Virus record (IMG/VR): IMGVR_UViG_2698536480_000005
Coordinates: 1-3,823 of that record
DNA from: a virus
Lineage: Duplodnaviria > Heunggongvirae > Uroviricota > Caudoviricetes
DNA: 3,823 nucleotides
Reading direction: 5' to 3' (one strand)
Part shown: in pieces, positions 1-3,823 of the stretch
Position numbering within the stretch: position 1 is the stretch's first letter
How the letters are laid out: each line of letters begins with the position of its first letter
Made by a program: the position numbers and the translations under genes
The notes under the pieces: model-generated
The model's input: only the letters and a program-made list of their open reading frames with translations
Databases searched by the model: none
What the model was told of the DNA's origin: nothing

Positions 1-201
1 TTACCCATTGGCGCGGCTTAAGAGCTTATTTTTGAATTCACAATGGTCACGATATAACCATCTTGCTCGCCCGTGGATAACTTTGGCTTTTGGCAGGTCG
101 CCGGACTTAATCCGGTCATAGATGAAGGTTTTACCGAAGCCAGTATCGGCCATGATGAATTTCAAATCAACCAGTGAATCAGGCTGTAGTTCGTGTTGCA
201 T
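1..201 (-). CDS. xis: Excisionase-like / AlpA-family phage DNA-binding protein (66 aa), complete
   Basis: ATG at 201..199, TAA at 3..1. SD-like GGAGA 8 nt upstream of the ATG. Protein has the HTH core typical of AlpA/Xis (MerR-like) excisionases (LVDLKFIMADTGFGKTFIYDRIKSGDLP...GRARWLYRDHCEF). Assignment from memory of the family, not a search. Confidence 0.8.
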   Translation of the reverse strand: MQHELQPDSLVDLKFIMADTGFGKTFIYDRIKSGDLPKAKVIHGRARWLYRDHCEFKNKLLSRANG

Positions 202-242
202 GAGTGCTATCTCCGAATAGGGAATCGAACCTGCAAATCAGG

Positions 243-268
243 TAATAAAAAACCGCCATCAGGCGGCT
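243..268 (-). terminator. Rho-independent terminator (minus strand)
   Basis: Minus-strand RNA AGCCGCC-UGAU-GGCGGUU forms a 7-bp GC-rich stem (one G.U) with a 4-nt loop, followed by UUUUUUAUUA (plus strand 243-252 is A-rich). The TGA stop of the 55-aa ORF (261..259) lies in the loop. Confidence 0.6.
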
Positions 269-426
269 TGGTGTTCTTTCAGTTCTTCAATTCGAATATT
301 GGTTATGTCTGCATGTGCTATCTGCGCCCATAGCATCCAGTGGTCATAGCAGTCATTGATGTTCTCTGCTTCGATAACTCTGTTGAATGGCTCTCCATTC
401 CATTCACCTGTGACTCGAAAGTGCAT
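259..426 (-). CDS. Small hypothetical protein, 55 aa (MHFRVTGEWNGEPFNRVIEAENINDCYDHWMLWAQIAHADITNIRIEELKEHQAA); not in the ORF track
   Basis: Hand-translated: ATG at 426..424, uninterrupted frame to TGA at 261..259. Strong SD GGAGA (plus 433-437 revcomp) 6 nt upstream of the ATG. Stop sits in the loop of the downstream terminator. Mixed, non-repetitive amino-acid composition. No homology evidence. Confidence 0.45.
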   Translation of the reverse strand: MHFRVTGEWNGEPFNRVIEAENINDCYDHWMLWAQIAHADITNIRIEELKEHQAA

Positions 427-437
427 TTATCATCTCC

Positions 438-464
438 ATAAAACAAAACCCGCCGTAGCGAGTT
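438..464 (-). terminator. Rho-independent terminator (minus strand) downstream of the 93-aa gene
   Basis: Minus-strand RNA AACUCGC-UACG-GCGGGUU forms a 7-bp stem (one U.G) with a UACG tetraloop, followed by UUGUUUUAU (revcomp of plus 438-446). Lies 51 nt after the stop of the 515..796 CDS. Confidence 0.5.
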
Positions 465-514
465 CAGATAAAAGAAATCCCCGCGAGTGCGAGGATAGTT
501 ACTTGTTCATATTA

Positions 515-796
515 TTAATCGTCAATGTATTTTGAGCATTGTGGGCAATCATCAATCCCACAATACGATTCATATGCATCCTTTATTGCGTCGCGGGCTT
601 CAGTAAGAGTATTGAATAAGTTGCAGCTATTATCTTTTTGATATAGGTAAGTTCCTAATTTATAAGCAGAAGAAGCATCATTTCCGCTGTCTAAAATTAC
701 ATCGTTATGGATTCTGCACCTTGCAAGAACTCCTGATCCCATAAGGGTCTGCATAGCCCATTGCTCTTGATCTTCACACAAATCATGAATGCTCAT
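515..796 (-). CDS. Hypothetical small Cys-containing protein, 93 aa (moron-like cargo gene)
   Basis: Track ORF 515..814 starts at GTG; I prefer the ATG at 796..794 because GAGAGG/GAGGTG SD lies 5-7 nt upstream. TAA at 517..515. Gene looks AT-richer than its neighbours by eye. C-terminal YCGIDDCPQC (C-x4-C-x2-C) plus three other Cys. No family recognised. Confidence 0.7.
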   Translation of the reverse strand: MSIHDLCEDQEQWAMQTLMGSGVLARCRIHNDVILDSGNDASSAYKLGTYLYQKDNSCNLFNTLTEARDAIKDAYESYCGIDDCPQCSKYIDD

Positions 797-829
797 TTCA
801 ACACCTCTCTTCACGTTTCACACACGTTA

Positions 830-859
830 AGATTAACAGTGTTTTTACATGCTTTGGAA
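830..859 (-). promoter_or_regulatory. Candidate sigma70-type promoter for the 93-aa gene (tentative)
   Basis: In the AT-rich 114-bp gap between the DUF551 stop (911) and the 93-aa gene. On the minus strand: TTCCAA (plus 854-859) - 18 nt - TAATCT (plus 830-835). Sequence-pattern only; other AT-rich hexamers nearby are alternative candidates. Confidence 0.2.
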
Positions 860-910
860 GATTTATTTTATAAAAACTCTTTTAATACAAATAGATATAA
901 TAGTTCACTA

Positions 911-1579
911 TTATAGCTCCTTTAATCGAGGCGGTTCTGGTAGAGGCATCCAGTGGGTTACCTCTTTGAGATACAGGTCTTCGCCATCACCGTCATCCCA
1001 AGTTGGATTGCCATCATTAAACCAGTCGCCATATACGCCGACCTGAGTGTTGGGGATGTTTGGTGGGTAGTTGTTTTTAAAGTCAGCTGCTAACACATAG
1101 CATTGTCGCTCTCCCATTTCTGGCATTCGCTCACTACAGCTTATCCAACCATCCGGAGTTACCGGATAGTTGCCGGGTTCTTTAATGTGCAAGCGAGGCT
1201 CACCATCTTTTGGCTCAGGCCACTGGCGCTCCATGTTGATCTTCAATTTATCTTCCATAGCAGCGGTAATTTCAGCATCGCTGATGCCAGCACGGCGCTG
1301 TGCATCCCACAACAGAAACTGCATATCAGCCCACTCGCTAAGATCGTCTGGTTCGGCTGCGGCTTCCAGTGCCTCTTTTGAGAGATGTTTCAGCGGACCA
1401 ATGGGGCCAACGCAGCCAAATGTGGAGTCAGACCATTTGGCATGCTCGTGGCGAATCTGTTCGCGTTCCAGTGATGCCAGTGCAATTCGTGCCAGTTCCA
1501 TTTGTTCGCCACGAGTAAGTCCGTTATCAAGCGGATTTTTAATGAATAATTTGATACGTTCTTTGGTTATAGCGCTCAT
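911..1579 (-). CDS. DUF551-domain phage protein, 222 aa
   Basis: Track ORF 911..1612 begins at TTG; I prefer ATG at 1579..1577, preceded by AAAGGAGAG SD and sitting 1 nt after the TGA of the upstream ea22-like gene (TGAtATG coupling). C-terminus ...YGDWFNDGNPTWDDGDGEDLYLKEVTHWMPLPEPP matches the DUF551 signature as I recall it. N-terminal ~130 aa unrecognised. Confidence 0.8.
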   Translation of the reverse strand: MSAITKERIKLFIKNPLDNGLTRGEQMELARIALASLEREQIRHEHAKWSDSTFGCVGPIGPLKHLSKEALEAAAEPDDLSEWADMQFLLWDAQRRAGISDAEITAAMEDKLKINMERQWPEPKDGEPRLHIKEPGNYPVTPDGWISCSERMPEMGERQCYVLAADFKNNYPPNIPNTQVGVYGDWFNDGNPTWDDGDGEDLYLKEVTHWMPLPEPPRLKEL

Positions 1580-1580
1580 A

Positions 1581-2132
1581 TCACTCTCCTTTGATGCGAA
1601 TGCCTGTTGCAATGCTGTTTATGATGCTGTCAGTGCATGGGGTAGAAAGCTGGGCATCTCCAGCAATTCTCATGACCTCAACATCTGCATATCGAATACC
1701 GAGGTGTATCAGACCGGCTATACCTGACTTAAGCCGAGCATTTTCCATAAACAGATCCTTTGCCCGCTGTTTTTCTGCCTCAAGCTCAACGCGCAACTTC
1801 CCTACCGTTAACGCAATCTCCTCGTTCTCCTGGTCGCGGCGTTTGATGTATTGCTGGTTTCTTTCCAGCTCATCCAGCAGCGCCAAGACGGTAGCGGGAT
1901 TGGCTGCGGCGATGAATTCAGCATTGGCCTGCTGTTCCATTTGGAAATCTTCATCGAAACCGCTTTCTGGATGCGCTCCTTCAATTCTGCAAATAGGAAT
2001 ATATCCAGCAACTTCACGATGAATTAGCGCATCATCACCATCAAATCGGCTCTCTCCATATTCGAGCGACCACTCACCACACGTTGCTTTTTCTGCCTTA
2101 GCACGCAGTGCCTGATAGTCAATCTTGCTCAC
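1581..2132 (-). CDS. ead/Ea22-like family phage protein, 183 aa
   Basis: GTG start at 2132..2130 with a strong AGGAGG SD 6 nt upstream; the GTG overlaps the TGA of the upstream gene (GTGA). N-terminus [21 protein letters not shown] and the NPATVLALLDELE motif followed by a coiled-coil segment are characteristic of Ea22-like proteins of E. coli lambdoid prophages (recalled, not searched). Confidence 0.8.
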   Translation of the reverse strand: MSKIDYQALRAKAEKATCGEWSLEYGESRFDGDDALIHREVAGYIPICRIEGAHPESGFDEDFQMEQQANAEFIAAANPATVLALLDELERNQQYIKRRDQENEEIALTVGKLRVELEAEKQRAKDLFMENARLKSGIAGLIHLGIRYADVEVMRIAGDAQLSTPCTDSIINSIATGIRIKGE

Positions 2133-2560
2133 TGGTTGCCTCCTTTGCGAAGCTGGGCGGCAAAAGCTACTGCGTGATCATGATGCTCAAGTGTGTATGC
2201 TCGCTCCGCAAACATCTCCACCCCCTGCGCCCGTACTTCAGCCAGGAAAGCATCGGTAGCTGGAGTTTCAGTAACATCATCTTCCCATTCGCTAAACTCC
2301 TCACGACAAAAGTCATTAAATTCCTTCTCAGATTGCTTAAGCGATGTATTTTCAGCAGCCATCTTCGCGCATTTAGCCTCAAGGTTATCAATCGTGATTC
2401 CAGCAGAACGACACTCCCGCAACTCCGTTTCCAGTTTTGATTCAAGCTCACCGAACTTACGCACCAGATATTCAGCGTTTGTTTCGTTAACCTTTAAATC
2501 TCGTGGGATGCATTTACCTTTCAGAAAACCATCCATCTCAATTAGTGACATTTGTTTCAT
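2129..2560 (-). CDS. Hypothetical phage early protein, 143 aa, coiled-coil rich; possibly an Ea22-like module
   Basis: ATG at 2560..2558 overlaps the TGA of the 54-aa ORF (ATGA); TGA at 2131..2129 overlaps the next GTG start. Central heptad-like segment ([50 protein letters not shown]). Weak SD (GGAG 9 nt upstream). Confidence 0.7.
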
Positions 2561-2721
2561 TTCTTCCCACTCCGCAACATCGCATTCAGATATTTGTTTT
2601 GATTCACTGATGGAAAAGAATTTCTCTTAAGCAATTCCTCTCTCGATGGCATTGGCTTTACGCGTTGGCGAATAATCATTTCTGCCGGAAGAATGCCTGG
2701 ATTGTATGCAAGTCCTCTCAT
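2557..2721 (-). CDS. Small hypothetical protein, 54 aa ([54 protein letters not shown]); not in the ORF track
   Basis: Hand-translated: ATG at 2721..2719, 17 nt after the stop of the 104-aa gene, with SD AGAGGA 7 nt upstream. TGA at 2559..2557 overlaps the ATG of the next gene (ATGA). No homology evidence. Confidence 0.45.
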
Positions 2722-2737
2722 GGTAAATTCCTCTTTG

Positions 2738-3052
2738 TTAATTTATTCGTATGCCTGCTCTTTCTTCATCGAGTTTTTTTAGCTTGTATCGCATAGCTCT
2801 CACTGAATAAATTGAGCGGCAGGTTGCAATTGCTATTTCTTCTGCGGAGAACTTACCGAAAAGTGATACTTCGGCTCTTGTCCATCGTCTTCCACGAAGT
2901 CGGCTAACAATGTCAGCGCCAATCCTTGTTGCTTTCGCCATTACTGCTTTTTCAGTCCTTTCCAGTTTTTCAGCGATAACTTCAACTGGCATTGTCGCCG
3001 CCACTTCGCGCAAGAAATCGACTTCCCATTTCTCCCATGGAGTCTTTTTCAT
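2738..3052 (-). CDS. Hypothetical protein, 104 aa, with an internal tandem repeat resembling two HTH/Myb-like units; putative DNA-binding
   Basis: ATG at 3052..3050, TAA at 2740..2738. Two related segments ([36 protein letters not shown] and [35 protein letters not shown]) with a conserved aromatic-acidic-hydrophobic pattern. SD is weak. Functional call is inference. Confidence 0.65.
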
Positions 3053-3063
3053 AGTCGATACCG

Positions 3064-3546
3064 TTATTTGATAAGAAGTGAAGGTTTCCCAACTTTGAGT
3101 TGAGCGCCAGGGATATTTATTCCTGCTTTTAGTTGGTGTTTGATTGCCAGTTTGTCGGCTTTAATTATCGTTTCAAACTCAACGTATTCAGGAGGAAGGG
3201 CGCTTGAGTCGATGATTTCTACAGTTTCTGACGGTTTGCGGATTGTTACCTGGTGAATACCTGCTCGAATATTTTTCTTGCCAACCATTTCAAGCGATGA
3301 CGCTATATATGATTTGATGCTGTCAATCTTATTTTGAATTACTGCGGCTCGCTCATTCAGCGACTTTGCCTCTTCCTTGAGGCGTTCAGCATAACCAGAT
3401 TCATTTTTAATGACGGAAAGAAGTTGCTCTATTTTATCGGTAAATTCTCCTTCCATGCCTTCTATTGTGTCAGCAATCATCTCTGGTTCTAAATCTGAAT
3501 CCATCAATTTTGCGTATTCATTGGCAATTTCATACAGTTTGCTCAC
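3064..3546 (-). CDS. Siphovirus Gp157 (Sipho_Gp157) family protein, 160 aa
   Basis: Track ORF 3064..3552 starts at TTG directly abutting a GGAGG; the GTG at 3546..3544 has that GGAGG 6 nt upstream and is the more plausible start. TAA at 3066..3064. Pattern SKLYEI...DTIEG.EGEF.DK.E....VIKNE....ERLKEE.K.L.ER...I..KID..K.Y....LE..G.K.I..G...V.IRK.P..VEI.D...LP.EYV......K.DK.AIK..LKAG..IPGA.L fits the Gp157 family as I recall it. Confidence 0.75.
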   Translation of the reverse strand: MSKLYEIANEYAKLMDSDLEPEMIADTIEGMEGEFTDKIEQLLSVIKNESGYAERLKEEAKSLNERAAVIQNKIDSIKSYIASSLEMVGKKNIRAGIHQVTIRKPSETVEIIDSSALPPEYVEFETIIKADKLAIKHQLKAGINIPGAQLKVGKPSLLIK

Positions 3547-3787
3547 TGGCAACCTCCAGTTTCGCTTTGCATTCTGCGTAAATGGCTTGTACGTTCTGCT
3601 GCAATTTCATTCCAGATGTCAGGCGATATGCTTCTGCAAAATATCGCTTCAAATCATCCATGTTTTCTGCCTGAGCCATTTCATCACAAAGAAGTTGTGC
3701 TTTTTCCATTATTTCCTGCTGGCGTTTCCGTTCATCTTCGCGGATATCTTCCTCTGATTTGTGCGGCATAACTGGTTCCTGATGCAT
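3530..3787 (-). CDS. Hypothetical phage early protein, at least 85 aa; 5' end uncertain and may extend beyond the window
   Basis: TGA at 3532..3530, 17 nt inside the start of the Gp157 gene. In-frame ATGs at 3787 and 3769 (the latter with AGGAA 5 nt upstream). The frame stays open with no stop from 3787 to the window edge at 3823. Charged, helical-looking composition. Confidence 0.5.
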   Translation of the reverse strand: MHQEPVMPHKSEEDIREDERKRQQEIMEKAQLLCDEMAQAENMDDLKRYFAEAYRLTSGMKLQQNVQAIYAECKAKLEVASEQTV

Positions 3788-3823
3788 ACCTTCATCTTCG
3801 TTAAGCAGGTGTGAACCGCCCCG

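Follow-up and report, generated by a model that had tools for sequence, protein, structure and literature searches.

The stretch of DNA analysed here, called the window throughout, is 3,823 nt long, and all of its credible genes lie on the minus strand. Read from left to right, it carries the following genes, with one translation signal:

1..201, minus strand: torI, a complete ORF of 66 codons (ATG at 201-199, stop codon TAA at 3-1)
211..214, minus strand: Shine-Dalgarno sequence GGAG of torI, 9 nt upstream of the ATG, read from the sequence
259..426, minus strand: conserved phage ORF of 55 aa (phrog_676), function unassigned, which occurs beside lambda-type Exc/Int modules (contig L004)
515..796, minus strand: Ea8.5-family gene, 93 aa as called (Pfam PF20735, E=1.1e-15; gene call in contig L003)
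911..1579, minus strand: dATP/dGTP pyrophosphohydrolase and DUF551 protein, 222 aa as called (Pfam PF04447, 6e-42, and PF04448, 3e-20)
1581..2132, minus strand: Ead/Ea22-like protein of 183 aa (Pfam PF13935, 8e-34)
2129..2560, minus strand: phage protein of 143 aa (phrog_614), function unassigned
2557..2721, minus strand: DUF2737 protein of 54 aa (Pfam PF10930, 3e-32)
2738..3052, minus strand: protein of 104 aa related to 'D5-like' phage regulators (phrog_323, phrog_11492)
3064..3546, minus strand: Gp157/Mu Gam-like end-protection protein, 160 aa as called (Pfam PF05565, 2e-37; phrog_253)
3530..3823, minus strand: 3' part of recT, which runs off the right edge (phrog_148; a 300-aa RecT is called in L003)

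The start of the pyrophosphohydrolase-DUF551 gene varies with the gene call. The longest ORF at this place (911-1612; 233 aa) uses a TTG start and overlaps the Ead/Ea22 gene by 32 nt, and the calls of identical contigs place the start at the ATG at 1579 (222 aa). The contigs L005 and L006 are base-identical at this gene, yet it is called shorter in them (181 and 189 aa).

The 66-aa product of torI matched PDB entry 1Z4H, the 'Tor inhibition protein', at 66/66 residues (E=6.6e-43). The same protein is entered in RefSeq as 'response regulator inhibitor TorI' (WP_001163428.1) and is the product of hkaC in phage HK620, and a search of PHROGs assigned it to phrog_66, 'excisionase and transcriptional regulator' (E=2.7e-8). 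These matches confirm that the product of positions 1-201 is TorI, the excisionase (recombination directionality factor, RDF) of KplE1, HK620 and Sf6. A preliminary description of this DNA, made from the sequence alone, had placed an excisionase gene at the left edge of the window and at the end of a leftward operon. The complete identity to 1Z4H and the phrog_66 assignment bear out the first statement, and the second agrees with the gene order, an all-minus-strand block that passes through recT, the gam-like gene and the ea-type genes and then reaches torI. The identity of TorI and its last place in this block are far beyond chance.

The label 'AlpA/Xis-type' given in that description is apt as regards the excisionase but loose as regards the AlpA family, since both Pfam models concerned scored TorI below their gathering thresholds (Phage_AlpA, PF05930, 12.7 bits against a cut-off of 21; HTH_17, PF12728, 16.9 against 27). 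In NCBIfam, TorI and four of the five other window proteins tested had no match, and the remaining one gave a sub-threshold chance match. AlpA of CP4-57 and the Phage_AlpA and HTH_17 families are likewise small MerR-like/winged-helix DNA binders tied to prophage excision, with weak sequence similarity to TorI. AlpA is a transcriptional activator of an integrase gene. TorI, in contrast to AlpA, represses intS (PMC2951348), and it additionally inhibits the TorR response regulator.

Contigs sharing the gene order of the window were found by exact-protein look-up with the 143-aa window protein and were compared by BLAST. One contig of a draft E. coli assembly (L008; GCA_001575385.1, contig LOOD01000015.1) matches the whole window with 100% identity (3823/3823 bases), and two others (L003 and L005) are 100% identical over 3811/3811 bases. 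In all three, the host gene dsdC lies on the opposite strand, 183 bp beyond torI. It is followed in L003 and L005 by dsdX, dsdA, emrY, emrK and evgA, and in L008 by the same series of Pfam domains, on into evgS. An integrase domain was found in none of these genes. At the other end, window positions 3812-3823 match L008 and not L003 or L005; L008 ends 2 nt beyond the window, so that the right window edge corresponds to an assembly break inside recT.

The DNA between torI and dsdC is an attachment site. With bases left of position 1 numbered negatively, its features are:

-89..-74 (L008 3899-3914): 16-nt core ATGGTGTCCCCTGCAG, which is the HK620 attP core and the 3' end of argW, a gene for tRNA-Arg
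6..-4 and -7..-16, no strand assigned: two copies of the repeat GGGTAAAATA, found by a repeat search; the first copy holds the torI stop codon
1..24, no strand assigned: the functional attR fragment ends here on its phage side, within the 3' end of torI; primer attR-IHF2 is the reverse complement of window 5-24

The attR that adjoins torI in L008 thus carries the 16-nt argW-derived core, CTGCAGGGGACACCAT. The stretch of L008 from the core to torI matches the HK620 attP arm, and the opposite (left) side of the core is host DNA. At the empty site of strain CFSAN061761, 95 nt separate dsdC from the tRNA-Arg gene argW, and the host identity between L008 and this empty site stops exactly at the last base of the core. 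In our reading, the layout runs, from left to right, from host DNA on the dsdC side through the core and a 73-nt phage arm with the two GGGTAAAATA repeats to the torI stop codon, the core at attR being a duplicated copy of the argW 3' end.

A published 135-bp attR substrate made with primers attR-XbaI and attR-IHF2 supports excision in vitro (PMC3509656, section 3.6). On the present sequence these primers delimit exactly 135 bp, at -111..+24, and the fragment thus includes window 1-24. Window positions 1..6 are the inner 6 nt of the first GGGTAAAATA repeat, and the HK620 annotation labels the repeat stretch an attP repeat (1441-1463). The motif TAAA is also present in the P' arm-type sites of IntS on attL that were mutated by Panis et al. 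(PMC2951348, section 8). Because the GGGTAAAATA repeats have this motif in common with those sites and because of the HK620 annotation, we call them arm-type-like, and these copies would be putative binding sites of IntS.

The preliminary description had also expected an integrase and an att site (a tRNA/tmRNA or other direct repeat) to the left of position 1. The att site is there, its core only tens of nucleotides away and its functional fragment reaching window position 24. No integrase domain and no tRNA (ARAGORN) were found in the 7.9 kb of L008 to the left of torI; the left neighbour in the three identical contigs is dsdC, and argW stands at the opposite prophage end in related complete genomes. 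Judged by what the description had named as refuting it, the lack of an integrase or att site in the nearest few kb on the left, the att half therefore stands and the integrase half fails.

The place of the integrase can be read from related phages and genomes. In HK620, int (50-1207), the attP core (1368-1383) and hkaC/torI (1457-1657) follow one another, and a contiguous int-attP-torI layout was found in 17 phage records. With attP situated between int and the RDF gene, the two genes are parted on integration, and intS, together with argW, comes to the far prophage end. The best complete-genome match to the window is that of E. coli A65EC (88% coverage, 97% identity). Its lambdoid prophage of ~45 kb has a copy of the core at either boundary, the second at position 35703 of locus L011, and intS stands at the far end from torI. 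The corresponding coordinates are:

E. coli A65EC: torI 1422756-1422956, beside dsdC; intS 1466384-1467541; tRNA-Arg 1467703-1467777; distance from torI to intS, 43.4 kb
E. coli K-12 (locus L015): torI 12090-12290, beside dsdC; intS 20898-22055; tRNA-Arg 22217-22291; distance from torI to intS, 8.6 kb

In A65EC and K-12, intS and argW are found at the end opposite torI; L008 itself ends in recT. On the basis of these related complete genomes and of published work, intS and argW are most likely at the far end of the window's prophage. In the integrated state, torI would be the last prophage gene, at attR by dsdC, and intS the first, at attL by argW, so that intS would lie tens of kb beyond the right edge of the window. 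The int-attP-RDF layout has already been described as an 'unusual organization' by Panis et al. 2010 (PMC2951348). The arrangement is thus known, and the module, its sites and its regulation have previously been dissected by experiment. With high confidence, we read positions 1-201 as the TorI RDF of the KplE1/HK620/Sf6 module in a lambdoid prophage at argW, the window starting inside attR.

The closest relatives agree with this reading at the left end and diverge from the window further right. KplE1 (CPS-53) of K-12 has a TorI that is 100% identical, the same 16-nt core, the same dsdC host junction and a 135-bp attR fragment that is identical at 133/135 positions, and torI is likewise its last prophage gene. 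KplE1 is a 10.2-kb defective remnant without a repressor, whereas the early-left operon of the window's prophage is a full lambdoid one, with an N-like gene, cIII, kil, recT, the gam-like gene and ea genes. KplE1 and the window part at about position 250, which is the site of a hairpin at 250-269, and many other prophages share the window sequence only from position 244-247 onward. HK620 (hkaC) and Sf6 (gene 18), of the genus Lederbergvirus, have the same attP core, arm repeats and RDF, and their ea-type genes are partly common with those of the window. HK620 covers 37% of the window; from torI up to the recombination genes, most accessory genes are different ones, and HK620 has other recombination genes.

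The records of HK620 and Sf6 represent the excised form, in which int, attP and xis are contiguous, and the window could have been taken from a non-integrated phage of this kind. An intact attP would then lie on its left with intS ~250 bp away across attP, and the prediction of a neighbouring integrase would be literally right, but with att between xis and int. The 17 records with the contiguous layout speak for such an origin, as does the 99.3% identity of window 1-305 to HK620. However, the phage record with the highest coverage spans 60% of the window and none reaches 80%, the three bacterial contigs of 100% identity show the dsdC prophage junction, and one of them, L008, breaks off 2 nt past the window. 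We consider it very unlikely that the window derives from a non-integrated phage.

The expectation of an adjacent integrase corresponds to the arrangement known from lambda. Lambda Xis is likewise a small RDF of the winged-helix type; it bends DNA, makes contact with the integrase and directs excision, and its gene is distal in the pL operon (PMC3509656, PMC2951348). The lambda order is attP-int-xis, so that xis and int are adjacent in the prophage and co-transcribed from pL, and pI lies inside xis. In the TorI module, by contrast, the two genes are separated by attP, intS is transcribed from an autoregulated promoter of its own in attL, and TorI binds attL and not attR. If the window had the classical layout, xis would be co-transcribed with an int directly to its left, att would lie beyond, and the window would be the integrase-proximal end. 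This is the textbook arrangement, and it is real in three prophages (L004, L007 and L009) with the 143-aa and 55-aa ORFs, in which a lambda-type Exc (PF07825) and a 356-aa integrase stand beside the host gene ybhC (12779-14045 in L004, with equivalents in L007 and L009). In the window, however, the RDF is TorI and not a lambda-type Exc; attR and then dsdC, not int, follow on the left of torI in every contig identical to the window; and an int gene could not fit into the mere 73 nt that separate the torI stop codon from the core. A lambda-type layout is thereby refuted for the identical contigs and has a negligible probability for the window.

The prophages L004, L007 and L009, in which the rule of an excisionase followed by an integrase does hold, encode a 143-aa protein identical to that of the window and a closely similar 55-aa ORF. 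The presence of window-type cassettes beside Exc and Int in these prophages points to the same accessory cassettes being shuffled between two recombination-module layouts. Pieces of the window match 3967 of the 5426 E. coli genomes, and at least 80% of the window is covered in one genome only. The preliminary description had assigned the accessory genes to the integrase-proximal variable region; their content is indeed highly mosaic, but in the prophage they lie at the attR/RDF end. On the prophage map they are attR/RDF-proximal and integrase-distal, and they are integrase-proximal on the circular phage map only.

Base composition varies along this region. Positions 501-900, which contain the Ea8.5-family gene, have 35-37% G+C, against 42-54% elsewhere, and an AT-rich non-coding stretch of 96 nt lies at 815-910 (114 nt when counted from the 93-aa start at 796). 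A moron, as an independently transcribed lysogenic-conversion cassette, would be flanked by a promoter and a terminator of its own and deviate in composition. The segment 501-900 is moron-like in composition, and terminator-like hairpins occur around the 55-aa ORF and after the ea8.5 gene; all genes have the orientation of the pL operon, and a search of positions 1-950 found no sigma-70-like promoter.

Among 5426 complete E. coli genomes, torI with its arm and core is present in 1405, and 858 of these have the same torI-core-dsdC junction as the window-identical contigs. The other ~547 torI-bearing genomes have another left flank, and three of them were sampled. One has another host flank at this place, the csc sucrose genes. 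In the other two (strains NIID080884 and EC7518; loci L013 3636-4826 and L014 3562-4824), a tyrosine recombinase is encoded ~260 bp to the left of torI, and a copy of the core lies between the two genes, exact in L013 and changed at three positions in L014. The EC7518 recombinase is 420 aa long and 32% identical to IntS. The extra recombinase probably belongs, as integrase, to a second island in tandem at argW, and in such genomes a naive 'xis beside int' reading would match torI with the wrong integrase. These two strains also provide a precedent for tandem elements at the window's own locus, where a core copy and then the integrase of a second integrative island would come just left of torI. 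In the window-identical contigs, however, dsdC stands directly at this position and agrees base for base with the empty-site flank, and it is extremely improbable that a second element adjoins the window's torI.

The work on KplE1 and HK620 provides a mechanism for the module at argW. IntS is produced constitutively, in low amounts, from PintS, which lies inside attL and is repressed by IntS and TorI (PMC2951348; PMC3509656). The intS promoter overlaps attL, and the RDF gene has no promoter in common with int. Through contact with IntS, and together with IHF, TorI drives the recombination of attL and attR into attP and attB, and production of the RDF is the switch that controls excision (PMC2951348; PMC3509656). 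A protein identical to that of the window is required for, and directs, the excisive recombination with IntS in KplE1/HK620 (PMC2951348, PMC3509656), and TorI most likely directs excision in the window's prophage as well. TorI binds five 8-nt sites on attL (PMC2951348; PMC3509656), which we mapped from the published coordinates as CAGTTCGC, CAGTCCGC, CAGTTCGT, TGGTTCGC and CAGATCGT.

The promoter of torI itself, PtorI, has been termed 'non-characterized' (PMC2951348, Fig. 1 legend). The scan of window 1-950 returned intrinsic-terminator-like hairpins at 5 sites, counting both strands, against 0.7 expected; hairpins of this kind stand on both sides of the 55-aa ORF and after the ea8.5 gene. Those lying upstream of torI in its own orientation are:

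250..269, minus strand: terminator-like hairpin AAGCCGCC TGAT GGCGGTTT followed by TTTATT, just upstream of torI
446-465 and 477-496, minus strand: two terminator-like hairpins, found by the sequence scan

The head of the same operon is seen in contig L006, which is identical to window 574-3811 and encodes there an N-like antiterminator and an S24-peptidase repressor. A search of Rfam around torI at E<=1 gave a chance miRNA as its sole match, so that no known RNA element was recognized there. In K-12, Menouni and colleagues (2013) reportedly found that torI is kept silent by Rho-dependent termination. From the arrangement of these elements, torI appears to be the distal gene of the leftward pL operon, behind three intrinsic-terminator-like hairpins. 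Given this position at the end of the operon, torI would be made only by N-antiterminated transcription after loss of the repressor, and such an antitermination-dependent expression would couple excision to induction.

A second piece of argW lies on the other side of torI:

221..236, plus strand: 16-nt exact copy of the T arm of the tRNA-Arg gene argW, GGAATCGAACCTGCAA (TTGCAGGTTCGATTCC in the torI sense), 19 nt upstream of the torI ATG

This copy agrees at 16/16 positions with argW in L011, L015 and L016, and 200 shuffles gave no match to the T arm, even with 2 mismatches allowed. It has the same orientation as the core 73 nt past the torI stop codon. In argW, the T-arm and core pieces are directly contiguous, with one base in common; near torI they are parted by ~293 nt that hold the ribosome-binding site, torI and the P arm, so that the 3' half of the tRNA gene looks split. 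A longer degraded copy of the tRNA gene or of an att site at 221-236 was also considered and is excluded, as local alignment of window 195-275 with the empty attB region revealed no similarity beyond the 16-mer. The T-arm copy is kept in K-12, in HK620 and in five other loci. It is absent upstream of the TorI homologue in the Klebsiella phage Chronis, which has an 80% identical module with a core that differs from ATGGTGTCCCCTGCAG, so that not every form of the module includes the fragment.

Two explanations can be proposed for the T-arm copy. It may be a relic of the insertion of an RDF gene into an ancestral attP tRNA-identity block or, because it contains the GGTTCG of the published TorI site I4 (TGGTTCGC), it may act as a TorI operator at the torI promoter. 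Both proposals are speculative, and we regard it as unlikely that either is correct; if the copy were such a relic, it would explain the origin of the unusual int-attP-xis order.

For the annotation of prophages and their boundaries, the position of torI calls for caution. The rule 'excisionase, integrase, att' fails for the large argW-integrating KplE1/HK620/Sf6 group, which roughly one in four complete E. coli genomes carries. Here an excisionase gene signals the prophage end opposite the integrase, and the last part of this gene lies within the att site.
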